From assembly GCA_965655095.1 (NCBI GenBank), contig OZ296657.1, forward strand, positions 40,176,001 through 40,240,000: a DNA stretch of 64,000 nt. Reading direction: 5' to 3'. The first letter of the stretch is position 1, and every line of letters starts with the position of its first letter. This document shows positions 7,394 through 43,620 of this stretch, one piece after another. The notes beneath the pieces were generated by a model. The model was given only the letters and a program-made list of their open reading frames with translations. It was not told the DNA's origin and did no database searches. Source of the stretch: Haplodiscus bocki (taxonomy: Eukaryota). Made by a program: the position numbers and the translations under genes.

Positions 7394-9696
7394 TGTCGTA
7401 TTTAGACTTCAGAGTAAACTGATCATTGTAATAGTTTGGCTTCAAACAAGTCTCTAGATCCTTTATCTTACTTTCGGTGCATTGCTGGCCTCGCGAACAA
7501 AGGTTGCCTAAGTTCAATAGCAACGATTTTGTGGGCGATGAATGAAAATTAGAAAATAAAATATTCATTTATTCAGTTCACAAAGGGAAATGAAATGCGC
7601 TCAAATGAATTGGCTTGCAAATGCACATAGTTGGGCGCTTAGTCATAGTGAGAGTAGGCGAAGAAATGGGAGTTAGCGAAATAGCAGCAGTCTAATCTCA
7701 CATAGAATGATTAAAGTTACAGTAGATGAATTCTTCAACAAAATCCAGTACTCCTTGTACAAGAGTTTTATCCCTTTAAGAATATCAGAGTCCAACACCA
7801 GCCAGAAAATCTCTCAACAAAATAAACGTCCCAAATTGAAAACAGAAATAAAATTGGATTTTCAAACTATTTGGTAGATGACAGAAATCGACGTTATCAA
7901 AAAACAGCTCATTGCATCACTAAAATTTTTTTTGGAACGAGGCATCATTTTTTCCAGAGGACTTATATGAATATTCAATGAAATTGTTGAAAAGTTTCAT
8001 CAATTTTGTCCAAAATTAAAAAAAACTGAAGTACCAAAAAACTTTCAGGGTATATCTGGAACGTATTTGAAACGAATTCAGTTTATGAGGGAGAAAGTAT
8101 TTCGGAGCTTTTGTTAAGGGCGAACAGTTTGAGTTTTGTTGTTTCTAGAACTGCTTTTCCTTTTTGTGGTTCTTATGAGATTTTTGTTCCCTAAAAACTT
8201 TTTCTCACCTTTGCGCTTAATCAATTTGTCTACGCTCAGTAACTAGCATTTCGCGCCAATTAGTTTGGGTCTTGTGGTTCCATTTTGTTCATTCAGCGCT
8301 CAAGACATCAAGATATTCCTATGGGTTGACATGGAATGCTCTTTTGCTTTTCGTCTATTTTTATGAACTTTGGTCACATGCGGTCCGCAGTGTACCGAGA
8401 CAGGTCTCTTGTTGTTCCTTCATCGATCAGATATCAAGATCTCAAGATCAAGCTGTGACTTCGAGCAAGAATTTTATAAGTATTTAGGCTTTCTAGAAAT
8501 TTGGGTTTTATCTAATCAGGTGTACCATGCCAAACAGGCTTCTTGGTTGTCTCTGATTTTGTCCATTTTTCTTCAACCGAGACTCTTGTCTACTGGATTT
8601 TACGGGAGGAAAGAATTATGGTCAGGCCAAAAACCTACTGAACTCGTGGATTCACAAGGAATTCACCAAAAAGCCCAAAAACTTACATTTTTTTGAACAA
8701 ATTTTCGTCGGGAAACTAGTAATATTTTACGTCAGGATTTATGCAAAAAGTGTTGAAATTGGCCAGAAACATAAACTATGTCTGGACTAACAAAAGTTCT
8801 GACTAACGATTTTCGCTGATGAAGTCGAGTGACCTGCGCGTTATTTCCGCGACTCTCCATTTATAAATCTCACATGCGATAAATTCAAATCGGGAGTTTG
8901 CGACAAGACAGGACACGAAATTGCTTTAGGAAAATTTTGTAGAATTGAACAAAATTTGAGGTTAAGATGAAAAGCAACTTTGTCTGAGGAAAAAACTTGT
9001 GTTATCGAAGAAAAATTTCAGCCACGGCAGAAAATAAAGTTGTCTGGAAAATTTCTTGTAGGAATTAAAGAAAAATTTCGGCCAAGGCAGAAAATGAAAT
9101 TGTCTAAGAACATTTGTGAAGGCATTGAAGTTGGTCTCAAAGTAAACTGTTAAGCCGGGGAAAAGAGGAGAAAGAATTTGGTTTTTGAATAAAGTTTTCC
9201 GCAGAGACGAAGAGGGAAGAGGAGTTGGACTTAGAACAATGGTCCAAGTAGGGAGAGAAGGAAAAAAGGGAACTACACTTCTAATTTGTCCTTGCCAGTA
9301 AAACAGAGAACTGTAAGTTTGACTGAAAATAATTTGTCCAAGTGAAAACGTGGAGAAGAGGAGAGCAAGTCAGAACAGGAACGAGGAGTCCGTCCGTTAG
9401 AGGGTAAAGAAAAATTTGATCCAGATGGTTGCGCAGATTAACTCCAAATTAACAACATGCTGCCAGAGCATTCGACCAATAGGAACCGTTTCGCACTAGG
9501 CATGTTAGCTGGAACCAATCAGAAAATAGCACTAGTTAGAAATTTCGTAAACGAACTTTGTGCAATTCCATTTGTTCATTGGTACCAGGGGATTTTTTGA
9601 TCCTTTTTGTTATTCCTCGCCGGCCTCCAGCCTCACCACTTCAAAAATTTAGCTATAATAGCTAAAAATTGTTTAAGTGTTACTTGTAAAGCGACA
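7394..9696. mobile_element. ~2.3 kb LTR (family A), probably the 3' LTR of the minus-strand Gypsy element to its right
   Basis: Termini TGTCG...GCGACA. Shares blocks (GGCCTCGCGAACAAAG, CAACCGAGACT, GAGCAAGTCAGAA, terminal TTTAAG(T/C)GTTA...GCGA) with 25025-28211 and, in part, 53918-56172. Flanks GAAT/CAAA do not form a TSD, unlike the two solo copies. Confidence 0.65.
8940..9125 (+). repeat. Three degenerate ~60-bp tandem units inside LTR A
   Basis: Repeated ...AAAATTT(C/G)...TTGTCT... at about 60-nt period on consecutive sequence lines. Confidence 0.7.
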
Positions 9697-9789
9697 CAAA
9701 ACGGTACCCATGAGGAGCTACAACTCACGCCTTTTACAGGGACGTCAAAAAGATTGGGCGGCTCTATGAAAAAGGGAAGATAAAGGAAG

Positions 9790-10420
9790 TTTGAGTTTGA
9801 GACTTTTGGCACAGGAAGGTCAGAGATCTCTTTCTCAGTAAGACTCGCACCACCAACTAGGAAGACTGCAGTTTCACAAAAAAGGTCAAAGTGGGGTATG
9901 AAGTTATGGACGATGATTGCAGAAACTCCTGTTTTTGCTAAAATGATGGGTTGTTTCTAGGCTGGTTCTTGATCAGGTCAAATTGTCTGTGTCCAGATGT
10001 ACAGTGGGTCCAGTGGGCCACGAATACCATGTGGTAGGAGTTTTGGGCAGGACCATCCGAGCAAGTTGTCGCTTTAACCTGGGGGAAGGTGAGTAGAATT
10101 AAAGCAGAATTCCCAGTCGCCGATCAAATACCACAAAGGGTAAAACTTGATGTCTAAATTGTAGTCATGAGGATGACTTCTGAAATTAGGACGTGCAAAA
10201 CTCATGACCGGTTCGATGAGTGGGTCAGATGATGGCCCAGACACTTTGGCGGAGTCGAACACGAATTTGAGCGAAGCGATCTTCCGAATTACTGTATCTG
10301 AGTTGCTGGGTTTGAACTGGCAAAACTTATTGTGAAAGAAGAAACATTGAGGATGGTACCCGTAAGTAACTGATGTGTCACTCGTTATTTCGTCCGAATA
10401 ACTTTTCAAGTTTGAAGAAT
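9790..10420 (-). pseudogene. TRAF-type MATH domain remnant (stops and frameshifts)
   Basis: Manual minus-strand translation: VIRKIASLKFVFDSAK...PNFRSHPHDYNLDIKFYP / CGI*SATGNSALILLTFP / PG*SDNLLGWSCPK...NFIPHFDLF...FLVGGAS. This is colinear with the TRAF-C consensus IWKI...SPxFYTxxxGYxxxxRxYxNG...GxYDxLLxWPF...FxPxxxL...YxxDD. Confidence 0.75.
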
Positions 10421-12004
10421 CTCGTGGTTATTCACTATAACGTCGTGGGAGAGTTGTCTTGGGTGCTAGACGTAGGCTCTGGATCAGTATTTGTGGTAAA
10501 GGCTGTTCTCACTCTTGGTGGTCACGCAGCATCTTGCGGGGTGAAATGAAAAATTGATGTGCAACCAGCAGAAGAAAGTATGAGGTCCGATGATATAAGG
10601 GTAGGGTTAGGTTTAATTGTGGAACTTACTGCTAAATTTCGAAAAAAAGTGCACGTTGACGGGATTTACACCAACATAAAAAACAGGAGGTGACGGAGAA
10701 GTGCAAAATTATTCTGCAGTTGGACGGCAATCAAATGCAGTTCTTTCAGGTTCAGTTGGTCGGACTTTAAGTGTTCCTGGATTTGTCCCATTCCTGTGTG
10801 AATGGCATGTAGGCAATCCGCTTGTTGATTCTGAAGTTTTTGAGGGTTGGAGTATTGGGGTTCCAGGGAGAAGTTCGAGAAGCTGCGGGTTGAGTCAAAA
10901 ACGACTCCTTGGGGCCATAGCATCAAAGTTGGGGGTTTGAGTGTTGGAAACAGAAGATAGTTCAGTCAGCGGAGACATTCCGCAAACTATTCGAAGGAGA
11001 GAGGGATTCAAAAATGCTAAATTGTCCAATGATTTACCAGGAACTGGGAGGGGGAAATCAGTTGGGGGAAAAAGACTGGTGCAAGAGGAGTCAAGGACAT
11101 AAGCCGGATAGAGCAGTGATAGCTTTGGCGTTTATGCAAGTCGTTGACAAAGTAGTGATGTGTTTTGAAGTGTGAACTCCTGGCGGCAATTATCCCACAC
11201 GACTAAAACCCATGATTAAAAATCTTGTTTCAGACTGTAATGCAGATGTTGGCTGAACCGAGGTTATTTTATCTTCCCTTTATGAAAATTGTAAAACTCG
11301 TGGCGATGTTGACCTCCAAGAGTGGAGTGATGAAGTCGAAGTTTGAAATGACCGTCTCAAGGAAGAAAAGTTTGAATGTCAGAGACAGGAGAATTGAAGT
11401 TGGGAGGTCTGGTTAGTTTGTAGAGAAACTGTCGTCGGGCGACAACATAGGAAGTTGTAAAGCATCTAGCCCGGAAGCAATAGCTTCTACTATATTGTCG
11501 GGTGGAGCAGGGTTAGAGCTTAATTTAGGTGGAGAAGAGACAGGGGAAGGAAAAGTAACAATTGGATTGATGGGGACATACAAGCCAGAAAGTTTAACCT
11601 CTTGCAAGTCTTCGTCAGGATCGGAAGCAACTGGGAGGCAATCGTCACATCGAAGAAAGATTGATTGCACGGTGACCTAGAAAAACAATTATAACAAATT
11701 TAAACGGGCGACATTGAAGTTACGGGTGAGTTTAACTGCGTTGGACTCATTACGGGCTAGAAATCCTCTTGTTTTTCCATACCATCCTATCTGAGCTCAC
11801 TCAGCTTTACCTCATTACATATGGTTTTTTCTTTCTCTTGCGCGGCAAAGGACGACGCGCAGTGATCATACAAGGGAGCTAAAACCGACATGAAAAAAAT
11901 GTTGTATAAGGCTCTTACCAAACATGAGCGCCGCTGCGTCAGTTTTTTTGATTATTTCGGAAGGGCGTAAAACCATTACCACTACATGTATGATAAGCTT
12001 GACA

Positions 12005-13723
12005 TTAGAAAGACAGAAAAATTGATTCAACAGTGTTCCAAAACATATGCAACTGGTTCATAGGTATCCATAAGGCTCTCCTTGAAACAACCAGGCAAAA
12101 ACATTTTGTCCACAAAGAAGTCAGTTCGTGGAGCATCATTAGACGCACTGCCAGGGTTTTTTCCAAAGCATTTCCGGAAGCGGCACTGACGAGGATACTG
12201 CCCCAAAAACTGGTCGTTTCGCTTCTAGTATACATTCCTGCATCATGGGAACCGGAAAAAGAATCAACTGCTACAGGTGAGACGCCTTTAGGCCCAAACT
12301 CAGCAGGTCTGTCTTGATGCACGATGCCAGGTGTTAGTGTTTTCCACGGATCTTCTTGGTGCATGTCGAATTGGAAAAGTTCCTTTATTCGATCGGTACA
12401 TTTTTGTAAATGAGCTGCTGGGTGAGTTTGTCGGGTGATGGGGTGAACGAATTTGATCTGGCGTTCATAAAGTATAGGTAATCGATCGTCACACTGCTTC
12501 TTGGTATGAAGAGGCGCATGAACTAGTAGGCAGTGATAAAGTCAAACTAGGGTGCCATCTGTTTCAAGAAACATTGATAGGTTTCATGTTAGCATATAGC
12601 CTGAAAGATGGGGGTTCTCATAAGAAAACATCAAATTTGTAAGTATCTGGGTTTTTTCTTGCTCTTATTAATTTTTCAGAAGTTGTATTACAAAAGCCTG
12701 AAGTAGTCTTGGACTCTGAAAGAAAAATTTATCCAGTTTGGTTTCCGTATGCATCTTGTAGTCCAAAGCCTTATATATGTATATCTTCAATACTCGTTTT
12801 GTGAGACGTTTGGTTTGGTTTGGTTCGTATGCATACATTTGAGCAAAACCATTTTTCTTGAAGTGGGCTATACACTTTAAAAGTTGATTCGCACCATTTG
12901 TTCCCATGGTTCCTGCCAGATCTCAAGTCGAAGCCTACGCCAAAATTTGCTACATAGAGTGAAGCATAATTCGCCGGGTAAATATATGTTGGCTTTCCGA
13001 AGTCTTTTTGTGGGTTATTTATAACTGCGAATGCAAAATTGGTTGTTGCATAAGGTCCCTTGATTCACCATGTTGAGATCTTTGGCTCAGAAAGTTTGAC
13101 AAAACACCGTTGTCGGGGTTGTGCCATATAAAGGCAAGACGGTCCAATGAGGTCTCACAACCTTCTTGAGCTGAATCGGATAAAATTTTCCAGTGGACAT
13201 TCTAATCTTGAGAGTCGTTCTGTGCATGGAACGGAGGTGTGTATCGCGGGTAATCCCAGCTATTCCGCCAGGGTTTATCATGTCGTCGTTTATGGGACCA
13301 TCCATTGTTATAAAGGGATCTTTTGTACACTATTTAACTCCCAAAAGTTGATAAGCCAAAGAGATCATCTTTCCTTTTGTAAGAAAGCGGCCTCGTTTGA
13401 GTGTGATCACTCAGTAACTAGTAAATTCAGCAATGGTGTGTTCAATACTACTGTGTTCATTATGTCTACAATGCCATTTTCTCGCTGACGCTGTATTCGA
13501 TGTTTTGTTGCAAGCAATTTTTTTGGAAAAGCTTTGTCTGGAGCATATTTTTGGTCCGACTGATTTCAAGTCCTCGAGGTGTAATGTTGCCTTGTCGTAC
13601 CTGGTTGAGAGCATAGGGAGTGTTTTCCGTCCTTGCGCCGCAGTCATTTTGAGACAATTTAAGATTACTTGCCACCTGGTCTTCGCCTGGAACTAAAATT
13701 TGAGCAACCTCGGAACGCATCAC
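12005..13723 (-). pseudogene. Envelope-like class III fusion glycoprotein remnant (chuvirus G / herpes gB-like)
   Basis: Colinear Cys-containing fragments: QNDCGARTENTPYALNQVRQ (like the AYDC start), KWHCRHNEHSSI, LDYKMHTETKLDKFFFQ, and at ~12420-12580 SMFLETDGTLV*LYHCLLVH...QCDDRLPILYERQIKFVHPITRQT. The last resembles the C-x-x-x-L-P-V...F-x-x-P-x-T-R motif of chuvirus/gB-like env proteins. It lies downstream of integrase in the env position. Recognised by eye. Confidence 0.6.
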
Positions 13724-14099
13724 GATGATTTAAAGAAAAAACAAAATTGCCAAATTTTTTAGTGGAAGTTCAAGTTGTTGGCGTTTCCTCAGAGAAAAAA
13801 CCATTAAGGTAAAAGAAAATAGCGTCTTCACGGGATTTCCCAGTGAATTTCTCTCGGTTTTCTCAGACGCAAAGCTATCGAAAAATGCCCTGAAATCAAA
13901 CCACCTGTGCTTTGTTGGCAATAACACAAAATCGGACCTAAAAATTTATAGTAAAAGCACCACTACTGTAAAAATGACTTCGGGACTTTTATAAAGGTTA
14001 CCGAATTAGCACCAATATCCCTAAAAGGTACAAAAAATGAAACTTGAAACTGACTCACCTCTACCATTGAAATTGTTTAAAGGTAGCTCGTTTTGATTC

Positions 14100-16500
14100 T
14101 TCAGTCCTGCTGCCTGTCCGTCCGGAGCTGATGGTTGACAACGGCGGATAAGTTCGCTAACTAAATGTCTTCTAAGCGGATGAGTGTTTTACAAGTGGGG
14201 AAAATTGATCAATTTTTTCAACGCAGATAGCAGGTTCAATAACTCTTCACTCCCTGGCTTAATTGGTGTTTTCAAGGTTCCGGATCTAAGCTGTCCGAAG
14301 CTTAGAATCAGTAATATAAGGGAGTCAAGCACGTCGATCCAGTCCATTTTTATGGTTTCTAAGCTCTTTCTCGTTGCAAGGAGCTGCCAAAGACACTTGA
14401 TATTGAGTTCAATTGTCGAAAAAGTCGGCAACAGCGTGCAGGATGTTGATGTATGACACCTCATCAAGTCTCCTAGGGTTCCTGTCCATTACATCCAAAA
14501 GATCGTCCAAGCTTCGGTGTTCCCGTTTGTCCAGTGTTCTGGAGATTATCAAGGTCACGAAAAGGTTGGCAAACTCTTCTGTTTGGACTGATATGCGAAT
14601 GAGGATTATCGCGAGTAGATTCTAAACAACTTGAAGTATAAATTTTAGTGGACATGCGTCATGAATCCACAGATAATAGTTATGAAATGTTCTCCTTCGA
14701 GTGAAATTAGTGTCTACTTGAGGCGAATGTCAGCTCTCAGGGGTCTTTGAATATCACCAGTTCGGTTTAGAGTATTTTATACTGAGTTCGTTCGTGTTGT
14801 AACATAGGTCGATTGATTGGTTTGAAACACAATCACGGTTCTGTTTGGAGGAGCGTTCATAATAAAGCTTTCAATGGCAGCAACGTTTGTTGACTCTGGA
14901 GGACAGGAGAAGAGTTTTATTCAAATTTCGAGCTTCTCCGTACCATTTTCGTAACGTTTAGTTGTTAGATTGTACGTTGGGCAATTGATGATATAAAATT
15001 TGTCATACATTTCCAACAACATAGTTGTCATATGGAAATTTCTGTCCTGACTCTTGATAGCCACCGGGTAGGTAAATTTTGATGAGGGTTTTGATGAATG
15101 AGTAGTGAGAAGATCCAGGGTGCAGGTGAAGGTTGATATTTTGTCGTCGCTGGTCGACTTAGTGACAACTTTGTACTTTCTGTCGTGTTATTGAAAATCA
15201 GGCTCACATTGATCTGGTCTTGATCGTCAATGTTGACATGGGTAACTTTCATCTGATTGAAATAGTCCTTAAATCCACAAAAATTGTCACTCAGACCATA
15301 GATATCTGACGGAAGAAGGTTTCGTCACTGATAGTGGTTAGGCAACACTTGTACATCTCTTCCATTCCTGTTTCAATTTCAGTATGTTACGGAACAGTTA
15401 TTCAATCGGACGCCATTTCAATTCGTTTAATTGCTTTCATTTTTCTGACATCAAAACTGATAACAGCTGTAGTTGCTTGCCAAGTCTGGTGATTTTATGG
15501 AGTTTTTTAGCCCTCGGGCTCTTCCGTCGGCCATCGGGGACTTTTCATCTCTTGGCAGTCTTTTCACACCGTTTTGTGCCTGTCTGTGTGGTAAGATCTT
15601 GGGGTCACACAAAAAAAAGAACGACAAAAAGAGATACAAAGTGCTTAAGAGAGTAACTTGACTCGTCGGAAAAGAATGCAGTGAGCGAAGAGTCGAATGA
15701 TTTGATTGATTCTTTTTCAGATTCATAAACAAAGTAGTCGGAAATGTGTGATGGAAAACAGATAGGGAGGTAAGAAATTAGTTCGTCCAGGAGAAGGTTG
15801 GAACAAAAAAGAGAATGGTGGCAAGAACGCTCGTGAAGACTTGCTGTTGCCAGTAGGAACTTTTGGATTACATTTGTTGGTGAGATCCATTTTGAACGTC
15901 TTTGGTGACATTGATCTGACGCACACTGCAACAATGTGGGTAGCGAAACTCCAGAAACCTTAGTAGGAAGCGCCGAGAACAAATTCAAGGGACACCATTC
16001 AGTTGAGACCTACCACGTGGAATTGGGGTAGATTTTGTGACAATTGGTCATAGTGTTTTGGAAGAAAAAGCGTAAAAACTGTAGAATAGAACCGATGAGT
16101 TCCAAAATTTAGGTCATTTTTGCAGAAAATGAAGATAAAAAGATCCATAAGATGAAGTTTGAAAGTTTTTAACTGTGCCGAGTACGAGTGCAAAGCACAT
16201 ACTGTGGCTCAGGATAATCGTGCTGGAACGATTCTAATTTGTTTCGTTGGTCCGGGTTTTCCGACTGCTGTTGGTGAAAATTTGAATTGAATAACGATTG
16301 GCTAGGTGATTTTGAGAGGGGTTCCCTTGGCGATTTTGATGGTTTGAATTAAGGCTGAGGACATGCGAATCATTGGGCGTTAATGGCATTGCTGGTGAAA
16401 GAGCTTGAAAAAAATTGACTCGGGAATCACCGCTAGTGTTGCAATCGATTACTTGGAGCTGCAGTAGCAAGAGGACGTAAAGGTTCCGCAGCAAAGAAAA
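14100..16500 (-). pseudogene. Decayed extra ORF downstream of integrase, with a signal-peptide-like start; function unknown
   Basis: 16234..16494 begins (L)LRNLYVLLLLQLQVIDC (hydrophobic leader). Further minus-strand fragments (15999-16193, 15028-15252 with NVS/NNT sequons, 14189-14467) are co-oriented. Confidence 0.4.
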
Positions 16501-16849
16501 GAATCCTACAGACCAGGTTGCTCGGGGTTGTTAAACTTCTGATTTCGTTGTTCCATAATTTTCTTATAGAAATTGTCATGTCATCTATGCATGGGTATAC
16601 ATATTTTTCAAGCATTGAGTTCAAGCATGGGTATAGATTTTTTTCATGCATTGAAAAGTTTTTTTCTCTGGGGTTATATCCTATCAAATGACATCGGTTC
16701 ACATTCCTGGTAATCTCAGAGTCGTTGTCATCTTGTATCTCATGGTTTGTGCCTGTGCCACATTTAGTTGCTAAAAACGGTCCAAGTTGTCATTGCTGAA
16801 GTTTGGGATTTTTGGGAGAGATCTTCAAGGTGAATTTCATTGAGAATTT

Positions 16850-18600
16850 TCTGGCCTACGTCGAGGTGTTGTCCCAATTTAAATCAATTCGTGTAATTGT
16901 GTGACCTAGCGGCACTACATTTTTCGAATATGGCTGAGTTTTTCGGGTTGAAATCTCGTTCGCTTTCTAGAACGGATTGAGAAAGTTGAGGTCGTAGTAG
17001 GCTATCCAGTTGCTGGTTTTCCAAATTATTCTCACTATGAGAGTGGGGTCTCACGTATTTGCAAAAGTCAGAGTCTATGTTTATTGCCATGGTATTCAAG
17101 CTTTAAAAACATTACGAATCGAGGCTTTGTGCCAAAGAAGATCTCGTGGGGTATTTTTTCAGTGGTGTAACTAGCAATTTTTATGCGAGCAAAAATAAAG
17201 TTCAGTGCCAGTGAAGACCAATTGTTTCCAGTGTCTTTCGAGAAATTTCGCCTATAACGGGCAATGTGTTGGTTCTGTGTTTGAGTCTTACCATTAGTCT
17301 GACACGAGTATGCTGTTTGGGGCCCTAAGGTGATCCGTTTCCTTAGTCCAGTTGATGAAGTCGGTTTTGATGAAAACGGTGCCCCTGTCATGTACAATAC
17401 GCTCAAGAAATCCGGAAGAATGAATCCAATTCTCGACAACGGGGATTGTAACGTGATCACCAGTATAACTTACTGGGTATACCATCAAGAAGCCACAAAA
17501 TGCATCAACTACTAAAAAACAACGAAGATTCCGATCACTTGGTGGATGACGAGGTCTTATTGATCTATATGGATTTAGCACAGAATAGAGCAGTTTCGTT
17601 TTGCCGTTTTTCCCATGGAACATTAATCTGGTGTCTCGGTTTGGGTTTGTTATTTAAACAAGTAGGACAATCAGCAGTGAAACCACAGATCCAGCCAAAC
17701 ATACCAGGCCAGTGGTAGGATCGTTTTGTACTGTTGTAAGTTTTTGGAGCACCCATTTGTCCATTCATTTCATTGTAGTGTCCAAGGTTGAAACAAGCTA
17801 AAACAAAGTAATAGTGGTAGGCAAATTCATAGGTTGTCATCTTCCAGTTTGTCGGAGAGTTCATTGTAACATAACATTTCTCCTTCTTCTCCAATCAAGA
17901 GGCGATCGAATTCATGGTAAGACCTGAGAAGTCTCTTCGACTGCTGAATCCGGCGTGGTTTCCTATCGAGTAAGACTCCTTTTGGCAGCCAAGATCGCAC
18001 AGTGCCAAGAACTGGGTCTTCAATTTGTTCGGTTACGGTTGTGGAAACATCAAGGTCATTTCTTTTGGCAGCATCGTCTAGTTTCTTCATTAAAGCTTTG
18101 GTATCCAAGTGCGGGGTTTCTGTAGCTGAAAGCGTTTTTCTCATTGGGGACGCATCAGTCTTCCCTAGGACAGCATCATGGGTTGCTTTGGCTTCACGCA
18201 GTCGATAATTGTCAGCATTTAAGTTTATTTCCCATCGCATATGATCTTTTCGTTCTCGTCATCATTAATTCGAGCGGCGTCGTCCATGAGTTCGTCCCCA
18301 GTGTGTTTTCGTCTACGTCAGTGTTCAGCGAATGGATTGAACTGTATTGAACCGTAAGTAGGTTCGGAGTCTTCGTTTAAGCCTAAAGGTGGCGATGAAG
18401 GTGAACACAAACGTTGGAAGTGATTGATTGTCCTGACCATTCGGAACCAGTCGGCTGCGGATTTTATTTTTGTTACTGGAAACCCGTTTTTGTGACTATT
18501 CTTGTGAAGTTTTTGCCATCATTATTCAATCGAAGGTTTTTTTGGGCGTTTCCTTGTTGGCAATGAATCGGATAGAAGTGGATGAAAGTGTCATTAGGAT
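16850..18600 (-). pseudogene. Ty3/Gypsy pol remnant: integrase zinc-binding and DDE core
   Basis: EQIEDPVLGTVRSWL (pre-integrase); GHYNEMNGQMGAPKTY...YHWPGM...CPTCLNNK (decayed HHCC); FLVVDAFCGFLMVYP; IVHDRGTVF; NGKTQTQNQHIARY; PHEIFFG. Split by frameshifts; no RT/RNase H visible. Confidence 0.9.
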
Positions 18601-20767
18601 TGTCATCGTGTTGGATTCGGTAGATTATTGGGGAACCATGTTCATCGTAGAACTCTATGTCTCGTGGTAACTTTTTGTAATAGAGCTATTGTTTTTGGTT
18701 TTCTTCCACTGTTACATTCATACGAAGGATGTCCGGGAAAGCAAGATTTGATCCTGGGGTCCAAACTAATTTTCAAATTTCTGAAACTTCGTTATAAGCA
18801 ATTGGTGTCTGATCCTTACAAGCAATTGGTGTCTGAAGAAGCGATGTGATAGTTGTCCTATACGTCCCCACAGGTGAAGAATTGGTTTATAATCACAATC
18901 CAGTTAGATCGGTAACGGAAAATCAATGATTTGAAGTTCAATGGTTTGTGGAGCGCAGACAATTTCGCAGAGTTTTCTGTGGAGGGTAGCTATTATTCTG
19001 CTCAGCTTTGTCAAATATCTTGGAGTTGAAAAAAAATATTCGCTCTTCTTCAGGGAACTGTTTCTGATCCAAGCTTGAGTTAGTAAGTAATTTTATCCAA
19101 GACTCAACATCATTGCACTTTGGTAATACCACCCAGCGAGTTCTTTTTTTGGGCATTTTGCATATTGCTCTTCTTCAGAGAGTTTTTATTCAGAACCATT
19201 TCCGTTGCACGCTTTTCAGACATTATTTACCCGATCTAAGATAATAAAAGTTTCATCTATAGAGTTGTACTCTTCTAGGGTGAGATACTTTAGATACTAA
19301 CGATTTGTTTTATTCAAAATAATGGGTACTGGGTTGTAGTTGGTGGGTTTTTGCGATTGCGATTTTCTTTTTAAGAGATCGGAATATTCCAAGTTCACAG
19401 TCTTCTCCTCAATTCATTCTTGCCAGCCACTTTTCATACGAGGTACTTATTCCCTAACCGTTGTACCAAATTTGATATTTTCAATTTGAAAAGTTTCCAA
19501 TTTGACGAATCCCCACAGACGTAGATTGGTCATCGGCCGGACGTAAAAAAATCAAAACACTATAGATGAGTGTTACTATTTTTGTCAAATTATGTTTTTG
19601 GTGTTTTTGTCAACTTCGGTGTTTCTGAGAAATGAGATTTAGAACGAGAGAGCTTCATAAAAACATTCGGCATTCATAATTTTGAATAATGGTCGGACGT
19701 TTCGGGAAATATGGAAAGGGGTATAATGAAAATTTTGGTTTTGGTGTTTTCAATAAAATGTTCCCTTAGGAACAGCGTATTGAATATTTTAGGTGTTGAG
19801 GCTTTGTATCTGGCGATTAACGTCGTAGTGCTACCCTTTTGTGTCTTAAACAACTTTAGCTCGTGAAACATTTCGCTTAGTAAAGGGCGGTATCACGATT
19901 TCAATTGGAAAATTTAGGTCTCATTACCGGATAACTTTGAGGAACGCTTTGGTGTTTCGCTAAACTTGTCCTTCCCCAGCAGAACGTTGTAAGAAATGAA
20001 TTTACTGAAGAGTGGAAAACACGAAAAGAACTCTGGATCGATATAAAACTAGAAAAAGCATTTTCCAAAAAAAATCACTGTAATAGTCGGACAGTTTTTG
20101 TTACAAAAAATGCCGAGTAAAAACTAATCTTCTTTAAATTTTCCGGCCACCTCACTACTTAGCGTATCCTACCGAACCCTTGAAGTCAACTTAAAATACG
20201 TTCAACATTTTGAAACAATTTGTAATTCCAGGCAATCCCACAGCCAGGCTTGCCCACAACCTTGTCCGAATAATTCCATGGAAAGTATTAAAAAGCTCCT
20301 CCAAGAATACTTCGCTTGACACTTCCACCACTGAGCACTTCTCCTCGATTTCTGTACCTAAGTTGCAATATTGTATGTTTCAAGATTTTTTAAATCCCTT
20401 CGTTACTGCAGCTTGTGAAGACACATGCCTTTGCCCACATACTACCCCGAAGTAACGCTGAAAACCTTTAACCTCCTTAACTTCCTCGCCCAAGCCCCTA
20501 ATAATATTAATCCGAAAAATCTTTCAGGGGGATTATGAATTTTTTTTTATTCGCGCGATCTCCCGGCTCCATGCTCGTCCAATGCGTCCCCCTTTACCCC
20601 TAATCCATTTTCCCGCAAATAGAGGTGAAAGTACTCGAAAGTTGTTGAGGTTAATTCATAATTTTGTTGAATTTGCGCAATCTCACAGCCACAGTGATTT
20701 CTCATAGTGTCGTTCCTGTCCTCCAATGCAAGTTTTTTGCGTTTTGAACAACAAACTCAAATTCTTT

Positions 20768-25024: not shown

Positions 25025-28000
25025 AGTCGCAGAGGTAGGGGGGAGTGCTGCGCTACTACGAGCATGCGGAAAGTAGAAATATTACTTGAATTTAATTTTC
25101 TTTCTGGTTCTAGTTTTTTCTCTCGCTTAGTGCGGCAGGTGATTAGCATACCTTTTGTTGTCTGGATCAATACAACAGCGGCGCCGCCGCGGTTGTTTTG
25201 TTTAATGAAAGTAAGTCTCAGGGGCTTTTATTAATCTACTTTCAGGTGCCTTGCAGGCCTCGCGAACAAAGATTGCGTAAGTTCAAAAGCAAGAACTTTA
25301 TGAGCGATGGAGGCAAAATAGTAAATAAAATAATCAAAAATTCAGTCAACCGAGGGGAACAAACATATGCAAAGGAAAAATGAAAGAGAACTGCGCTAAT
25401 TGGGAACTGAGTCATGTCTCAGCAATAGTAGCGAAAGTGGGGGTGAGAAGAAATTTAGTATCTATTCCAGGCCGTTCACAAAAGCGGTTGTTGAAAAAGA
25501 ATTATTGAGTTAGAAAATACAAAAAAACTCTCTCCCTCACAGAAATTTCAGTTCATTCCCAAATTTGCATAGACATCCGAAGAATATAAATTCATCAAAA
25601 GATTTATCAACTTAGCAGAAGACTTATCAAACGTAATAATCAAGAACAATCAAATTTAGAACGCTGATCATTCTAAAATGGAAATCTGATATAATGTTAA
25701 CAATCATAAAAGTTTACAGAAATCTCGATATAAATAAAATCCGTCCAAAGTGCAAATAAAATAAAACTTTGAAAAGACCAAAATGTGAGGTAATTCAAAA
25801 GAAAAGAAAAAAATCCCAAGCTTTGCTATTTGGGATGTATTAAAATGAGAGGTAGGGTACTACAGATAAATATTTCTTTTTGTTTGAAATAGGAAGGAGA
25901 TTTACTCTTCTCCTATTTTTCTAGCACTTTTTTAGGGTCGGGTTTAGTTTTTTGTTAGTTTTGGTTGATTAGTTAACGTTATGTCATATATATTGTTTTC
26001 GTCTACACTCAGTACCTGCGCCAGCATAGCAACTGGTTTTCAAACCTAGTCTCCGCAAATTTCCCGGACCGTGAATAATCACCGGATATTTTGGCGGGGT
26101 TTGGTTCGTTTAACTCTTATCTAATGATCAGGTGAAAGCCCGCGTTTTAGCGGCAGCCTGGTGATGTTCTCTTAGTCCCTTTTTCTCCAACCGAGACTTT
26201 TGTGCGGGTGATAAAAATGGGAGCTGGGAAAGAATTGCTGTCTATTCCATTAAGCTTCTGAAGAACAGGTTGTTACAAATTGCAGCCACAAAAATCAGTA
26301 TAAAAATCTCTCTTCACATTTATCCAAATTGTACATATCCCCAAACAAAAAAAAAACAACATTAATCGGACCGTCTAGAAGATTTCGAAAGTAAGAACAG
26401 TATGATTATATTCAAGAATTCTGGGAGTTACCAACTGTGTGAATTATCCCGGATAAAGGATTGCTGAAGATGGCTTGATTAAAAAATTGTACAAACGAGT
26501 CAAGATAAATGATTTTTAGTCCAAAATGCAAATGATATAAAATGTTCATGGCACAGTAAAAAAGCTGTTAGTGAATTAATTTTAGAATCAAGAGAAAAAC
26601 AACATAATTATTAGAAAATACCCAAGAATATTCAATTGCGGTATTTTAGCATTAAGCGGAAGCCATACGGGTAACATATTCTTGTTTTAGTCTAAGAAGG
26701 AGCTTCTCTTTTCTCCAATTCTTCTAGCACTGTTTTCTTTTAGGTTGGGCTCTTTTTTTGGTAATTTTATTTTTAATCGCTGATGTAATCTCATATATAA
26801 AAATTCATCATTTAGTCTACACTCGGTACTTGTGTTAGCATAGTAACTGGTTCAACAAGCTTAGTTTTTCCGAATTTTTCAAACCGTGAATAAATCACCG
26901 GATTTATTGGCGCGGTTTGATTTGTTTTAGGTTTTTTCTAAAACTCACGTAAGAGTTCGTTTATAACGGCAACCTGGTGACGTTCTTTTAGTTCTTTTTT
27001 CTCCAACCGAGACTTTTTTCTAGCGTATTTTACGGAAAAGACTTACAGAAAATTAAAAATGATCAGAGAGATTTACTCGTTCTGAGTTAGAAAAGTCTCT
27101 AACTAACGGGTACCATTGATGAAATCGGATGATCTGCTGGTATCTCTGGGACTCTCCTCTTATAGATATCAATTGCGAAGAAATTGACTAAAAATTTGTG
27201 AATCTATGCAAAGAATGGAATTGTTTGAATCAAGCACGGACGGTTTCTGCGTATTTAATCCGTATCTTGGAATTTAGAAAGTATTCTGAAGACCACGGAA
27301 GCAGACGAGGTGAGATTTGATCTATGTAACGTCAATTCTCTTTGACTAGGAACCTCGTGGAGGGTCGTGCTGTTTAAGATCCACTCATGCTTCAGAACCG
27401 GAGCTCGTCAGCGGAATTCACACACGCTGATATCGAGGCTAGCGTTAGTGGACACTGTTTAGACTCCAGCGGCAAGAGTATAGAATAAATAAAATGTTTT
27501 GCAAATTAAGATTCACTCTTGTTTCAGAACTGAGGTTCGTCCACGGGATCAGCAGACGCCAATGCCGAAGCTAGCGTTAGTGGACACCGTTTAGACTCCG
27601 GAGGCAAGAGTTTAGAATTTGTAGGCAGAAAGAGGGAATTTTTCTAAGACAGAAAGAAATTGGGACTAAGAATATTTTTGTAGGATTGGAATGACTTTGC
27701 GGCTCAGACAATTTTTGGAATAGTCTTAGAAAAATTTTGCAAGGACCTAGAATAGAGAAGAGAGAAGAGAAACTTGGACTTAGAATTTTTTGTCGAAAAA
27801 CAAAAGGGAGAAAGGGAGTTGGATTTAAAATAGTTTTTCCAAGTAAAAGGGAGAAGGAGAGTAAGGTAGAGCAAGTCAGAAGAGGAGTATGGAGTCCCGT
27901 CCGCAAAGCGGGAAAGTGAGTTACGATTGAGTCCGTTTCCTAGATCGACTCCAAAATAACAGCATCCTGCCGTTTCATGCAACCAATAGAAAAAAAAGCT

Positions 28001-28211
28001 TGTATCAGGCATGGTTGGCAGCAGGAGCCATTACGAAAAAAGCTCGCGTTAGAAATTTTTTGTAAAAAATATTTGTGCAACTCCGACGGTTTCTTTATTC
28101 CATCAGCTTTTATATTCTTTATAATTCCTTCACCTCTCCATAAAACGTTAGTTTCAATTAATTAATCATGTTTTATTTAATTAGCGTTTAAGCGTTATGT
28201 GGAACGCGATA
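25025..28211. mobile_element. Solo LTR, family A (3.2 kb), 4-bp TSD TTTC
   Basis: TTTC|AGTCGCAGAG...ACGCGATA|TTTC. 26200-28211 is highly similar to 54150-56172. Internal duplications at ~25850-26200 vs ~26690-27020 and a ~135-bp repeat at 27440/27570. Confidence 0.85.
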
Positions 28212-30810: not shown

Positions 30811-32584
30811 TGTCTGCCTCAGAACTATTGAGTTGTCCCGAGTGGTGAGGAAAATACCCCCCTTCGGGATAAGGATCGGTTGAGGAGCGGTCCCCATGAA
30901 GTTCTCAGCTTTCTGTGTTAACGTTTCTAGACGCTCCCTGAAATACGGAACAAGTCCGCACTTGTGGGTTAAGGAGAAACTCGTCAAGTTTCGATAGAGC
31001 ACCCAAGATACGTGACTCCGTTTTGTTAAACTCCTTCGACAGTTTCTTAGTTACCCTCCCTTCAATCTCCTCGGAGACCTGGGAGATGTAACCCTGGGTT
31101 AACTCAGGGTCAAGTACATTCCGTCCTCTACTGCCTCTACTGCTGTCGGGCGTTTCTCTTGACACTGCCGCTAATTTTCTCTTGTTTCTCAGTGTTGCCA
31201 TATTTCTTGAGGGGAAAAATCTTGTCAGTGATGAAGACTGAATTTCTACCTTGTGTTTTAATATTGATGAATTTCCTCTTGGTATGAGGGATCATGTTCC
31301 AATCGTATAAAAGTCAAAAGATGATTTTTGAAAACAACAATACTAAACAGTCACAATATTTTATAAAAGTACCAAACCGAAAGGCTACAATTTATATAAT
31401 AATACTTGTACTTTTATTTCTCCTATTTATACCTTTCCTTGACGGGAAACAAAATTGTTTACACGCCAAATCAAGGTACAAATAGGGAAAAATACTTTAA
31501 TCATATTATTTATCAAAGAAATTGGATGCCGACTCTGGCGGGAAATAAACACCCTTCCGTCCATTTCTTCCCTCACGGACCGCGTCTGTTCAATCTTTCG
31601 ACAGAAAAAAGTACGGTCCGATCCGTCTAAAATGGACATCAAAGTGGTTATTCCCGCGCCGACATCATAAATAATAACATGAACAAAAGATCAAAGTTAT
31701 TTCCAAACAGGGAATAAATACAATAATACAGTTGGAAAAATAATTTAAAGTAAGGAAAATTAATGTTTATAGTCTCAAAAGATTCATGACTACATGCTGC
31801 GTCGATTAAAACCACTGTTTGGAACAAACTAGGCGTAAATCCTAGCCCGTTCCACGTTTCTACCAGCTCAGGCCTCACTTTGGCCGGAGTGTTCCGTGGC
31901 GGCTACGTAGCCGCTTGTAGCACTGCCTTCCGCAGTGCTACTGAGGAGAATGATTCTGGTGGCTACGTAGACGTCCCGTGGCCGTCCAAAGTGAAACAGC
32001 GTAGTAGCACAGCGGATTGACTGAAATTCTAGTGACGTCACCAGATTAGTTACGACGGAACACATACGGAACAAATATTCACTTTTAAAGTCAAGCTCTG
32101 TTCTAATAGTTAAGCTATTGAAAACTTGTTAAAGCTGTCAATCTAAAAAGATTACTGCACATTCAAAAAGGTGGATTTATATAATAATTACATTAATTAT
32201 ATAAAATAGCACCTAAAATTATTATAAAATACAGTGAATATTCCTTTGTTCCGCATCTATTCCGTCCCAATAAGGATCAGTTCTCCAGAATTAAACGTAT
32301 CGGATACGTGCTTTTTACATGAAATAAATGTTATGGGACGATACGTAACTACTACGTATCGTCCACATAAATTACATGTGTGCGTACTAGGTGGATACGT
32401 ATCTACTACGTATCCTTAAGTATAATTAAATGAGTTCATGAATTAAATAAATAGGGCTTCAAGTTTAAGAGTTTACGTATAAGTTTGGAGTGTCGCTGGT
32501 GTCTCTAACTTCTGCTAGATGGACCTGGGGTGTCCTTTGTTGACGGGATCGTTTGTCCGCAGGCTTCGCAGATGTGCTGCGACA
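30811..32584 (-). mobile_element. 5' LTR of family B (includes gag start at 31201)
   Basis: Homology to the solo LTR 40395-42094 ends where minus-strand ...GACA is followed by TGGTGAC (PBS-like). Confidence 0.7.
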
Positions 32585-34046: not shown

Positions 34047-34530
34047 GAACAACACGGCCGGCTAGCACTGGCATAATTTTCGCCCAACTACAAATATTTT
34101 GATCAACTTTTGCAAACGGTTAAGAACAAAACTGAATTAATTTAGTTTTCAAAGAGTTTTTAAAAACATCAATTCCACCACTGATTTCTGGACATTATGC
34201 AAAAGGGTATCACGATTTTCCGTTGAAAAACTTTTGTCTCGCAGTGCCGAAAAATTTCGTAGAGGAACCCTTCTGTGTTTCAGAAAATTTCCGGTATCGA
34301 AAAATATTAGGGATAAGAGAGAGGGCGGGTATCACAATTTTCCGTCAAAATTGTTTTGTTTCACAGTACCAAATCATTTCGTAGAGGAACCCTTCTGTGT
34401 TTCAAAAAGTTTCGGGTATCGAAAACTTTATGCCTAAGTGAGAAAAATCACGATTTTCTATAGAAAATGACCATACTGAATGAATAATTTTTCTTGCATA
34501 TTACCTATGCGGCGAAAAATAACAACGTTC
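34047..34530 (+). repeat. Non-autonomous interspersed repeat with internal ~120-bp minisatellite (copy 1)
   Basis: Near-identical inverted copy at ~42888-43620. Internal units TATCAC(G/A)ATTTTCCGT...CGTAGAGGAACCCTTCTGTGTTTCA...GGTATCGAAAA occur twice; a decayed unit is at ~19885-19965. Confidence 0.9.
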
Positions 34531-36049: not shown

Positions 36050-36150
36050 AATGACTGGACCGGGGTCATCTCGACTGGAAGCTAGATACCGGTCCCAAGC
36101 CCGGCGCCATTCATATGGAGGAGGAGGGTTGGGGCCTGGCGTTCCCCGTA
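36050..36150 (+). ncRNA. Twister-ribozyme-like motif at the LINE 5' end (partial or variant)
   Basis: CCGGTCCCAAGCCCGG (36089-36104) matches the twister P4/L4 hairpin, and the following GGAGGAGGG supplies the P2 3' strand and the pseudoknot partner. The canonical upstream P1-UAA-CUCC-GC segment is not cleanly present. Confidence 0.55.
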
Positions 36151-39100
36151 AAACTAAGCCATGAACCCACTATGCTAAGTCCTCTTACTGACATACCGAT
36201 CTCAGCTACGCCCCCAGCGGTAACTGGGGCCGCCATGAGTGCCGTCGTGGCGGAAACTGCAAATTCGGCAGAATCCTACAAGAAACTGAATCATTCCAAA
36301 AACTTTCTTCATATGTGCACATGGAACGTGTTAACCCTACTACCCATTGGATCCCTGGAACTCTTAGACGTGTCGCTTACCAACCATTCTATCGACGTCG
36401 CATGCCTTCAAGAAACTAGAATCAGAGGCGATACAAAGTCAGTGACCAGAAACTACCAGATACTGACAAGCGGGTATGAAGACAAAAAGGGCCTCCACGG
36501 TGTCGGGATCGCTGTTTCTAACAGAATCAGTAACTCTATTCAATCGTGGCAGGCCATCAGCGCCCGAATATGCGCTATGCGCATCAATGCCAAGCCCACG
36601 CCCATCTCCATCTTGTCCTGCTATGCCCCTACCGAGGATACTGATTCATCCAAAAAAGACGACTTCTATATGAGCCTGCAGAGAGTCATAGACGCCGTTC
36701 CAAAGGGCGATGCCCTAGTCATCGGCGGTGATATGAATGCGAAGCTAGGATGGTCCAGTACATCCGAAAGCAAGCACATTGGTCGGTTTGTTAAGCCATC
36801 ACAGCGCAATGACAATGGTGATCGGTTAGCTCTTTTCGCATCCGCTAATGACCTCTCCGTTGCTAACACCATGTACCAGAAGAAAAAACACCAACTCAGC
36901 ACGTGGACATCAAGGGACAGGAAAACGAAAAACCAAATCGATTTCTTTCTTATAAAAAGAAGATGGCGCACAGCCATAAACGACATCCGCACTCGCAAGG
37001 ACAACCTGCTCATTGATAGCGACCACCAGATGCTTAAGTGCAAGATCAAATCCAAGCTGAAGACATACACAAAGTCTTACAAAGCCCAACGGTTCAACAT
37101 TGAAGGCCTTCGACACCCTGCCACGGCCAGACAGTACTGTCAGGAGCTACGTAAAACCGCTCAAGCGCTTCCGCACGACAGTACCGTGAACAGAAAATGG
37201 GAGTATATAAGAGACGCTATGATCAAAACTGCTAAAAAGACCATCGGCAAGACTCAAACCAAAAGTAAACCCTGGATTTCTCAGGAGACTCTCAATGCAA
37301 TTAAACATAGAGAGAGCCTCAAAAACAAGGGTGCGCCGCGCAACAAGATTAAAGAACAGAGGAAGCACATCAAGAAGCTTCTCAGGAGAGACAAAAACAA
37401 ATACATTGACGACAAAACTGCCGACATCGAACTGGCTAATGAGAAAGGGCACACCAGGGAAATGTACCGGCTGATCCGAACACTTGGAGGCTGTAAAAAG
37501 CATGCTTCGGAAACAATTAAAGACTCTAGCGGTCAGCGAATTTCCGATACCAGGAAAATCATGGAAAGATGGGCAGAGCACTTTGTCGAACTGCTCAACG
37601 CTGATACTAGCTCCACTCCATTACTCAAACGATTCACCCCACCCGTGGTCTTAGCAGAAATAGATACCGAAGCTCCAACCAAAAATGAGATAACCCACGC
37701 TTTGAGAGAACTTCAGAATCGTCGTGCTGGAGGATGCGACGGCATCCCGCCCGAGTTGTACAAAGAAGGCGGCGAGGCTCTCATTGACATGCTGAAATCC
37801 CTTCTCGATGACATCTGGGACAGTGAACAAATTCTGGATGAATGGCGGACTTCTGTACTTCTTCCTTTCCACAAGAAAGGCGACACGCAGATTTGTAGTA
37901 ATTACCGTGGCATCTCTCTGCTCTGTATAGGCTTCAAAATCCTCGAAACTATCCTTCTGGCTAGACTCACAGAAGCCTACGAACCTGCTGCTCGAGACAA
38001 TCAGGCGGGGTTCAGAAAAAAGAGAGGATGCCGAGACCAAGTTTTCGCGCTTCGACAAATTTTGGAGCAACGAAGTGAATTCAACAGATCTACAGTTATG
38101 ACGTTCATCGATTTCAAGGCGGCGTTTGATAGCGTAAACCGCAATGCGATTTGGCAAATCTTCGAACGCCTAGGCATGCCACAAAAGATCGCCAACATCA
38201 TCAGAAATATGTATACCGATACGAATAGCATCGTGAAGATGAATAACAACCTCTCCGACCCCTTTCCGGTGTGCTCGGGTGTGCGCCAAGGCGGTGTTCT
38301 GTCGCCTTTCTTATTTAATCTTCTGATCGACTGGGTTATGCATACAGCCACTGAGGGCACCAATCACGGAATACAGCTTGAAACTCTCATTACCGACCTT
38401 GACTACGCTGACGATATCTGTCTCTTGGAAGACAACAGCGCTGATGCCCAGGCCCTCCTCGATAGGGTCCTTTCTGCCGCGGTCGAAGTTGGTCTCAAAA
38501 TCAACGCCGGGAAGACGAAATGTATGCTCTCCAGACTAGAGCCGTCTTCGATTTACTGTAACGGCTGTGCCCTTGACAACGTAGCAGAATTCGATTACCT
38601 AGGCAGTCGCATCTCTCACAATGGTGACATCTCCAGTGAGATCCAGCATAGAATTACCCGTGCAACTGCTAATGCCTGCCAGCTCAACAAACTCTGGAGC
38701 AATAGAGATATCACTATCAAAACCAAGAGCAAAGTGTATAAAGCCTGTGTTCGTAGCGCCCTCCTGTACGGCGCAGAGACCTGGACCCTAAGGAAAGCTG
38801 ATCTCTCCCGACTGGACGCATTCGAGAACAGATGTGCTAGAAAATTCTTTGGAGGTAAAACTGAACTCAGATCTTCGACCATCAGAAGCATGGCACACCT
38901 GGGTGGCTCACTGGATCCACTCCTCCGGCAGATGCGCCTGAAATGGTGCGGGCATGTGTTCCGGATGACAGAGGACAGAGTCACCAGAGAGGCATTGATG
39001 TTCGACAAGGCTACATCTTGGAAGCGCCCACCAGGGGGAATGAGAAAGACCTGGAGAACTACTGTGGCAGAAGATCTGGAGCCCATTCTGAAACCCCCAC

Positions 39101-39231
39101 GGATGAGATCCGATATTTGGAAGAGGAAGTGGAAGGATACCTGCAGTGAAATTGCGACGGACAGGCCGAGATGGCGAGCAGTTGTCCGGGACGCGGTATC
39201 GGTGGCTGGCAATGGGCAGACATGCCTCTAG
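36115..39231 (+). CDS. APE endonuclease-reverse transcriptase (RTE-type ORF); true start may be a downstream ATG
   Basis: EN motifs TWNV, CLQET, YAPT, GDMNA, NQIDF, SDH; RT motifs NYRGISLL, QAGFR, FIDFKAAFDSV, GVRQG, YADD, YLGS; RTE C-terminal RLKWCGHVFRM; no stops. Confidence 0.97.
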   Translation: MEEEGWGLAFPVKLSHEPTMLSPLTDIPISATPPAVTGAAMSAVVAETANSAESYKKLNHSKNFLHMCTWNVLTLLPIGSLELLDVSLTNHSIDVACLQETRIRGDTKSVTRNYQILTSGYEDKKGLHGVGIAVSNRISNSIQSWQAISARICAMRINAKPTPISILSCYAPTEDTDSSKKDDFYMSLQRVIDAVPKGDALVIGGDMNAKLGWSSTSESKHIGRFVKPSQRNDNGDRLALFASANDLSVANTMYQKKKHQLSTWTSRDRKTKNQIDFFLIKRRWRTAINDIRTRKDNLLIDSDHQMLKCKIKSKLKTYTKSYKAQRFNIEGLRHPATARQYCQELRKTAQALPHDSTVNRKWEYIRDAMIKTAKKTIGKTQTKSKPWISQETLNAIKHRESLKNKGAPRNKIKEQRKHIKKLLRRDKNKYIDDKTADIELANEKGHTREMYRLIRTLGGCKKHASETIKDSSGQRISDTRKIMERWAEHFVELLNADTSSTPLLKRFTPPVVLAEIDTEAPTKNEITHALRELQNRRAGGCDGIPPELYKEGGEALIDMLKSLLDDIWDSEQILDEWRTSVLLPFHKKGDTQICSNYRGISLLCIGFKILETILLARLTEAYEPAARDNQAGFRKKRGCRDQVFALRQILEQRSEFNRSTVMTFIDFKAAFDSVNRNAIWQIFERLGMPQKIANIIRNMYTDTNSIVKMNNNLSDPFPVCSGVRQGGVLSPFLFNLLIDWVMHTATEGTNHGIQLETLITDLDYADDICLLEDNSADAQALLDRVLSAAVEVGLKINAGKTKCMLSRLEPSSIYCNGCALDNVAEFDYLGSRISHNGDISSEIQHRITRATANACQLNKLWSNRDITIKTKSKVYKACVRSALLYGAETWTLRKADLSRLDAFENRCARKFFGGKTELRSSTIRSMAHLGGSLDPLLRQMRLKWCGHVFRMTEDRVTREALMFDKATSWKRPPGGMRKTWRTTVAEDLEPILKPPRMRSDIWKRKWKDTCSEIATDRPRWRAVVRDAVSVAGNGQTCL

Positions 39232-42887: not shown

Positions 42888-43620
42888 ATATTTTTGCCGC
42901 ATATGTAATATGCAAGAAAAATGATTCATTCAGTAGGGTCGTTTTTTTCAGACCAAATTTGCCAACTCTGTTTATTCAAAAATAAGTAACAGCAGTAGGG
43001 TTAGGACAACATGGTTCTGAAGCGGTAGGTCCGGGTTCAAGTCTCCGTCAGGCCAAATATTTATATGATTTCACTGACATTTGTCAGAAATTCCAATGGT
43101 TCCCATGGCACAGTGGGTAGGACAACAGGGTTTTGAAGCGGTAGGTACGGGTCTGAATCCCAGCCTTTACCTAAATTTTTGAAGTATTACGATGCAAAAT
43201 TGTGATACCGCCCCCGCTCTTATGCATGACAATTTTCGATACCAGAATTTTTCTGAAACCAGGAAGGGTTCCCCTACGAAATTTTTTGGGACTGTGAGAC
43301 AAAACAATTTCGACGGAAAATCGTGATACTCGCCCCCTCTCTTATCCCTAATATTTTTCGATACCGGAAATTTTCTGAAACACAGAAGTGTTCCTCTACG
43401 AAATTTTTCGGCACTCCGAAACAAAAGTTTTTCAACGGAAAATCGTGATACCCTTTTGCATAATGTCCAGAAATCAGTGGTGGAATTGATGTTTTTAAAA
43501 ACTCTTTGAAAACTAAATTAATTCAAAACAGTAGTTTTGTTCTTAACCGTTTGCAAAAATTGATCAAAATATTTGTAGTTGGGCAAAAAATATGCTAGTG
43601 CTAGCCGGCCGTCTTGTTTT
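42888..43620 (-). repeat. Copy 2 (inverted) of the 34047-34530 repeat, with extra tRNA-derived units
   Basis: Reverse-complement match, also visible as near-identical spurious ORFs 34234..34437 and 43167..43424. Confidence 0.9.
42988..43165 (+). pseudogene. Two tandem tRNA(Gln)-like / SINE-head-like units (~116-bp period)
   Basis: Unit 2 GGTTCCCATGGCACAGTGGGTAGGACA...TTTTGAA has a pol III A box and a TTG anticodon-like loop. Unit 1 has TTCTGAA and B box GGTTCAAGTC. The acceptor stems do not close. Confidence 0.55.

Follow-up and report, generated by a model that had tools for sequence, protein, structure and literature searches.

A decayed class III-type envelope gene beside Ty3/Gypsy pol debris in Haplodiscus bocki

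Envelope genes of Gypsy and other LTR retroelements

The closest described systems are the 'ancient' errantiviruses with an HSV/gB-type ENV, which Chary and Hayashi (eLife 2026, PMC13524379) report to be widespread. According to the accessible text of that study, a chuvirus-like env stands beside gypsy pol in 114 elements, the glycoprotein resembling the envelope genes of Chuviridae, and the acquisition of env is held to be ancient, env having since been inherited with pol; a single origin of the env-bearing elements is ruled out, and Xenacoelomorpha are missing from the surveyed groups listed there. The association of a gB-type env with Gypsy has in this sense already been described as widespread and ancient. 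Drosophila gypsy and ZAM have the same gag-pol-env Ty3/Gypsy layout as the lineage discussed here, but their env, as outlined in the same text (PMC13524379), is of the F-type (class I, baculovirus F-like), with a fold unrelated to that of the env treated below. Outside Gypsy, a chuvirus glycoprotein is carried by the mosquito BEL/Pao elements named Anakin (Dezordi et al. 2020, PMC7642597, accessible sections), and chuvirus-like glycoprotein fragments have been found enriched beside Gypsy pieces, though capture is treated as unproven in the available part of that work (PMC10084718).

The locus described here lies in a stretch of 64,000 nucleotides of the Haplodiscus bocki genome, the whole of which was analysed and is referred to as the window. 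An RNase H end, an integrase, an extra stretch, an env and a post-env ORF follow one another in this order along one strand, forming what is very probably the dead 3' half of an env-carrying Ty3/Gypsy LTR retroelement, an HSV/gB-type errantivirus whose family is present at high copy in an animal genome. The family may resemble acoel repeats.

In the locus as in the errantiviruses of PMC13524379, an animal genome contains a Ty3/Gypsy pol with an env of the gB fold behind it, signal peptide and transmembrane segment (TM) included. As far as the accessible text describes these errantiviruses, the locus differs from them in several respects. The window copy is dead, whereas the catalogued elements are intact; an ORF-like stretch lies in the roughly 2.4 kb that separate pol from env, whereas the first filter of that survey allowed 1 kb; and the family has a conserved post-env ORF and a TARG1-type macrodomain in Pol, whereas the main text of the survey mentions no macrodomain, dUTPase or accessory gene. 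The family may be among the 1512 elements of that survey. With Anakin (PMC7642597, accessible sections) it has in common that a chuvirus-like glycoprotein of class III is encoded in an LTR retroelement, but unlike that BEL/Pao element the lineage is Ty3/Gypsy by its Pol domains and its Ty3 match, and no close chuvirus donor was seen.

The envelope remnant and its state of decay

An initial annotation, made from the window sequence, had placed at 12005-13723 an env remnant resembling chuvirus G and herpes gB class III fusion proteins. The nature of the gene was recognised correctly, as judged from a PF24664 match and from the predicted fold of a relative, but the extent was too short: aligned to the relatives P0081 and P0009, the decayed env occupies 13774-11703 on the minus strand, and the stop at 12005 merely ends an out-of-frame tail of it. 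P0081, an open relative of 718 aa obtained from a cluster look-up, aligns at 63.7% identity over 672 residues with 10 stops and 12 frameshifts, and the shorter P0009 at 64.4% identity over 641 residues with 8 stops and 8 frameshifts. The stops lie near 13731, 13412, 13331, 12669, 12666, 12585, 12543, 12028, 11788 and 11758. Aligned cysteines are kept in 8 of 15 and 6 of 14 cases, their placement being approximate near frameshifts.

The peptide quoted in the initial annotation was found by six-frame translation at 12574-12425 (minus strand). It contains an in-frame stop near 12543 and is the best-conserved stretch of the gene, directly past the long central helix of the structural model. It had been thought to be missed by the ORF track, which is true of its first ten codons, cut off by the stop, but the remainder lies mostly inside ORF 12005-12541 (178 aa, stop-to-stop, minus strand). 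Of 27 long natural relatives, 19 have the F-x-x-P-x-[TS]R spacing singled out in this peptide. The xDC motif noted for the N-terminal piece was located by translation at 13648-13640 (minus strand), at the start of the ectodomain, and 22 of these 27 relatives have a DC among their first 90 residues. Upstream of the motif, hydropathy indicates a signal-peptide-like N-terminus at 13694-13774 (minus strand), interrupted by the stop near 13731, with no Met at the position where the relatives start. At the other end, a remnant of a C-terminal TM, placed by the hydropathy of the relatives at 11940-12030 (minus strand), is broken twice, by the stop near 12028 and by a frameshift near 12001.

The state of the gene was compared with contigs from two sequencing runs of one study, which may represent the source or close kin. 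A contig of run X2 spans 8500-13621 with 10 differing letters and zero gaps, and a second one from the same run spans 13818-18662 with no differing letters. The former is free of gaps and does not differ at the sites concerned, so that this sample likewise has every one of the 12 frameshifts and eight of the ten stops counted against P0081; the stop near 13731 falls outside the long contig pieces listed, and the one near 11788 is unconfirmed, both runs reading that place differently. The contigs exclude an assembly error and nothing beyond that. The window copy of env is dead and yields no product. Just before env, at about 13812-13845, contig depth exceeds 2000 with a clustering of loose ends, which suggests that this short piece is common to a very high-copy repeat.

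Envelope genes are known in general to be domesticated by their hosts. Nothing specific to this locus favours such a domesticated fusogen, or a membrane protein of cellular origin, as the identity of the gene; for the window copy this reading is refuted by the 8-10 stops and 8-12 frameshifts, most of them recurring in the gap-free contig of another sample, and no cellular protein occurs among the listed fold matches, leaving it a probability close to nil.

The envelope family and its predicted fold

Nine ORF pieces of the env region were scanned against Pfam, and only ORF 12005-12541 matched any family, namely PF24664 Monjiviricetes_fusion, at 29.4 bits with a cut-off of 27 (E 2.7e-7). The window env with X at its stops reaches 37.7 bits (E 8.3e-10) and P0081 reaches 103 bits. 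A search for longer relatives of env returned 67 proteins among 383 candidates, all of them from ENA assemblies; PF24664 is found in all 67 of these close relatives, which stand for as many clusters, one with 86 members, and in all 25 of the more distant ones scanned. The env observation of the initial annotation is real and exceeds chance. Other searches were negative within their scope: the window env fragment had no match in a PDB sequence search, the env profile had a single PDB match (E 0.66) attributable to chance, phage records held no env relative, and viral contigs, from collections poor in animal RNA viruses, gave 0 pattern matches and 0 of 54 candidates confirmed.

The predicted structure is that of P0081 and not of the window copy itself, folded as a monomer with 44 natural relatives (a 45-row alignment). 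The model (pLDDT 73.5, pTM 0.54) has an N-terminal helix, beta-rich domains, a central helix of 45 residues (348-392) and a hydrophobic helix at 596-634. Hydropathy along P0081 has a single 19-residue peak, near residue 606, in addition to the hydrophobic N-terminus, and the C-terminal 19-residue values of P0081 and P0009 are 2.38 and 2.42. A signal peptide and a C-terminal TM, which had been named as features to look for, are thus indicated in both relatives by hydropathy and model helices, and survive as broken remnants in the window. Between 3 and 5 N-glycosylation sequons are present in P0081 and P0009.

When the model was compared with the PDB using Foldseek, all top matches listed were herpesvirus gB (best E 2.1e-14), covering model residues 28-567 at 9-13% identity. 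VIA-align gave Z 11.6 against gB over 435 residues at an rmsd of 15, and Z 9.5 against gB domain IV alone over 164 residues at an rmsd of 3.4. In a viral library the best matches were chu-, qin- and xinmo-like glycoproteins, with E from 3.5e-32 to 3e-28 and 12-17% identity in the best ten, herpes gB following well behind these RNA-virus glycoproteins at E 1.3e-15. Whole-chain TM-scores are low, at 0.25-0.31 against postfusion gB and up to 0.47 against viral G models, because the domains of the monomer model are hinged differently, which also accounts for the high rmsd. The class III fold is in this way found in an intact relative, through its matches to both gB and chuvirus G, and neither an absence of class III likeness nor a best match to a cellular protein, either of which would have spoken against the initial annotation, was seen.

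The glycoproteins of Jingchuvirales and related negative-strand RNA viruses are thus joined to this env by the same PF24664 family and by the closest predicted folds, but unlike them the window env is retroelement-encoded, and identity is confined to the low range given above for the best ten matches. Herpesvirus gB offers the best solved structure for P0081, with no match at the sequence level, and unlike gB the window env was not seen with partner glycoproteins. By analogy with such proteins, the env of active members would enter the secretory route through its signal peptide, would be glycosylated and would form trimers held by the C-terminal helix on Gag-built particles. It might then trigger membrane fusion, allowing particles to move between cells, probably from soma to germline.

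The Gypsy backbone and a possible LTR

Upstream of env, on the minus strand, a 5'-truncated Ty3/Gypsy pol remnant comprising an RNase H end, a linker and an integrase occupies 16163-19063. P0333, a Pol protein of 1827 aa from a cluster of 617 members, aligns to 19063-16225, the RNase H end and the integrase, and in this alignment no RT, protease or gag is attached to the window remnant. The domains of P0333 are of Gypsy type by Pfam and run in the order PR-RT-RH-IN, and its best PDB match is the Ty3 Gag-Pol (E 6.8e-55). Pfam matches of the Pol relatives include RT_RNaseH, Integrase_H2C2, Integrase_p58_C and SH3_Tf2-1, and a BEL-specific Pol family is absent among them. The Gypsy backbone proposed in the initial annotation is borne out by the window's RNase H followed by integrase and by the full PR-RT-RH-IN series in P0333 and in the related locus L004 described below.

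Evidence that pol and env belong together across the family comes indirectly from contig sizes: 8 of 120 contigs with a pol match are of the same size as one of 129 contigs with an env match, and a shifted control gave a mean of 0.05 and a maximum of 2, indicating that the two genes share contigs. These counts bear on whether a fragment of an RNA-virus glycoprotein, as an endogenous viral element (EVE), might have landed by chance beside Gypsy debris. Such an event would accord with the enrichment of arthropod chuvirus-like fragments beside Gypsy pieces (PMC10084718, available part), with the abundance of retroelement debris in the window and with the 2.4 kb between pol and env, but it has to be regarded as very improbable, given the many copies of the family in 67 clusters and the pol and env matches on contigs of identical size, and it is contradicted by L004, which has the same strand and order and a post-env ORF in common. 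No nucleoprotein or polymerase match was found near env among the 26 window ORFs scanned.

A possible 3' LTR remnant of the env-carrying Gypsy element is placed at 7469-9570 (minus strand) by its patchy colinear likeness, at 68-82%, to a repeat of 2-3 kb at 25237-28211 and 54027-56172. No 5' partner, PBS or convincing PPT was found for this candidate, the window copy being 5'-truncated, and the window holds no tRNA genes. An LTR-like direct repeat of 2 kb, 86% identical between its copies, lies at 26201-28211 and 54150-56172 and bears a distant similarity to 7469-9570. The interval from the post-env ORF to the possible LTR contains two stop-to-stop ORFs on the minus strand (10074-10427 and 9633-9956, of 117 and 107 aa), without Pfam match. 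Remnants of gag(-protease) at 31291-28790 and 2457-492 (both minus strand) have no match to P0333 and were taken as a different LTR family. The window further contains an unbroken LINE ORF of 1058 aa with endonuclease and RT (36055-39231, plus strand), flanked by long inverted repeats at 34048-34518 / 42891-43618 (up to 94%) and 31434-32094 / 40828-41510.

Related loci and the origin of the envelope

Metagenome assemblies were scanned for further env loci with a 13-row env alignment, the 45-row one being too diverse, and 11 of 194 candidate stretches were confirmed, among them L004 to L009. Only one of the 11, L004, extends to the pol gene. This locus of 13.2 kb is a whole element with gag, pol, env, two further ORFs and matching terminal repeats; its pol matches P0333 with identities of 54.5% over 851 aa and 50% over 524 aa, and its env matches P0081 with 38% over 668 aa. 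At L004:5162-5204, just ahead of the integrase zinc finger, pol is split into two overlapping frames. L008 and L009 have different ORFs upstream of env, without Pfam match. In the one from L008 (947-1894, 316 aa), a run of hydrophobic residues is accompanied by a dibasic site and by clustered Cys residues; the env relative of this locus is 30% identical, and a charged ORF, likewise without Pfam match, follows env at L008:4248-5738.

In a quick env tree of 31 env rows, with neither viral G nor published env rows, the window family and the L004 env fall into one 14-row clade (SH-aLRT 99), the window row filling 25% of the columns and ending out of frame. The shared arrangement points to pol, env and post-env ORF as parts of one old module. 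The initial annotation had suggested that such an env on a Gypsy backbone would imply an independent capture. This stands with respect to Drosophila gypsy, from whose F-type env the capture is independent, but a gB-type env on Gypsy had already been described, and a capture specific to the window family is not supported, since L004 has the same pol lineage, env clade and post-env ORF. Because these are common to a locus as distant as L004, a family-specific capture is unlikely.

A capture at the level of the lineage, in which the ancestor of the window family and the L004-like pol took a chu-, qin- or xinmo-like G apart from the catalogued gB-type errantiviruses, is a different matter, to which we give a low but not negligible probability. 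The fold matches to RNA-virus G, far exceeding those to herpes gB in the same library, and the strongly supported clade with L004 agree with it, as does the exclusion of a single origin of env-bearing elements (PMC13524379, accessible text). On the other hand, the 12-17% identity to viral G in the best ten matches falls short of the 25-41% found with other long relatives (their context being retroelement or unknown), the viral contigs yielded no confirmed candidate, and a chuvirus-like env beside gypsy pol is already on record in 114 elements (PMC13524379, same text). For the env-carrying Gypsy element favoured here, env would have joined the pol lineage long ago, from the G family of negative-strand RNA viruses or sharing an origin with it, and would after its entry have been inherited along with pol. 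The window env adds one family to the described association and supports long-term inheritance of gB-type env with pol.

Candidate accessory genes

Downstream of env, a broken homologue of a conserved post-env ORF lies at 11135-11314 on the minus strand. It was found with a profile of five ORFs from L004 to L007, which matches 11314-11135 with E 5.2e-5 among 1710 frame chunks, the best match elsewhere in the window being at E 2.2. The ORF occurs twice in L004 (9651-10757 and 11157-12095), the copies being duplicates, and once each in L005 (2541-3137), L006 (3075-3719) and L007 (2318-4060); a weak match was obtained in L008 and none in L009. It is kept in four of six distant loci with downstream sequence, in addition to the window, and the protein may have accompanied env over a span of 30-40% env identity. 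In its relatives a coiled coil follows a small domain. Five members gave no Pfam match at E 5, and the best Atlas value was 0.76. The best PDB profile match, Cas10 at E 0.019, was dismissed as chance. The model of the small domain is weak (pLDDT 58); none of 48161 chains reached Z >= 5 and Foldseek returned no match at E 0.001, the best match being a chromodomain below threshold (Z 4.3, rmsd 2.1, 46 residues). A chromo/Tudor likeness, as far as this model goes, may serve as a lead only.

Between pol and env lies a broken ORF-like stretch at 14099-14912, possibly beginning at about 15400 (minus strand). Eight protein relatives among 1579 candidates are 35-49% identical to it, and no gene is claimed here because they disagree in frame. 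Five of these proteins gave no Pfam match, and the Atlas search led at best (0.85) to unnamed clusters. The stretch is common to family members and absent from L004.

Macrodomains occur in other retroelements. In P0333, residues 291-431, between protease and RT, match the human TARG1/OARD1 macrodomain (E 7.6e-24). The domain is present in 19 of 30 Pol relatives examined, and as the other 11 do not span the region, in all 19 that do; it is missing from L004, and the corresponding part of pol has been lost from the window copy. The literature searched, which leaves out Repbase and most subscription papers, contains no description in Gypsy of a Pol macrodomain, of the post-env ORF or of the pol-env stretch, and a macrodomain in Gypsy Pol was likewise not found in the accessible portions of PMC6338049 or PMC12440569.

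It is conceivable, though we put it forward tentatively and as the less probable case, that the lineage represents an undescribed group of complex Gypsy elements which, as complex retroviruses do, have accessory genes beside a gB-type env, namely a conserved post-env protein with a beta domain, weakly chromo/Tudor-like, and a coiled coil, together with a TARG1-type macrodomain in Pol, and that its env may mark a separate capture. Should this be so, the macrodomain might act as a counter-defence by stripping off host ADP-ribose marks. The post-env ORF and the macrodomain, if functional, would provide handles on the assembly and spread of retroelements and on their evasion of host defence in invertebrates. 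The stretch of P0333 that precedes the macrodomain resembles, by eye, a decayed dUTPase.
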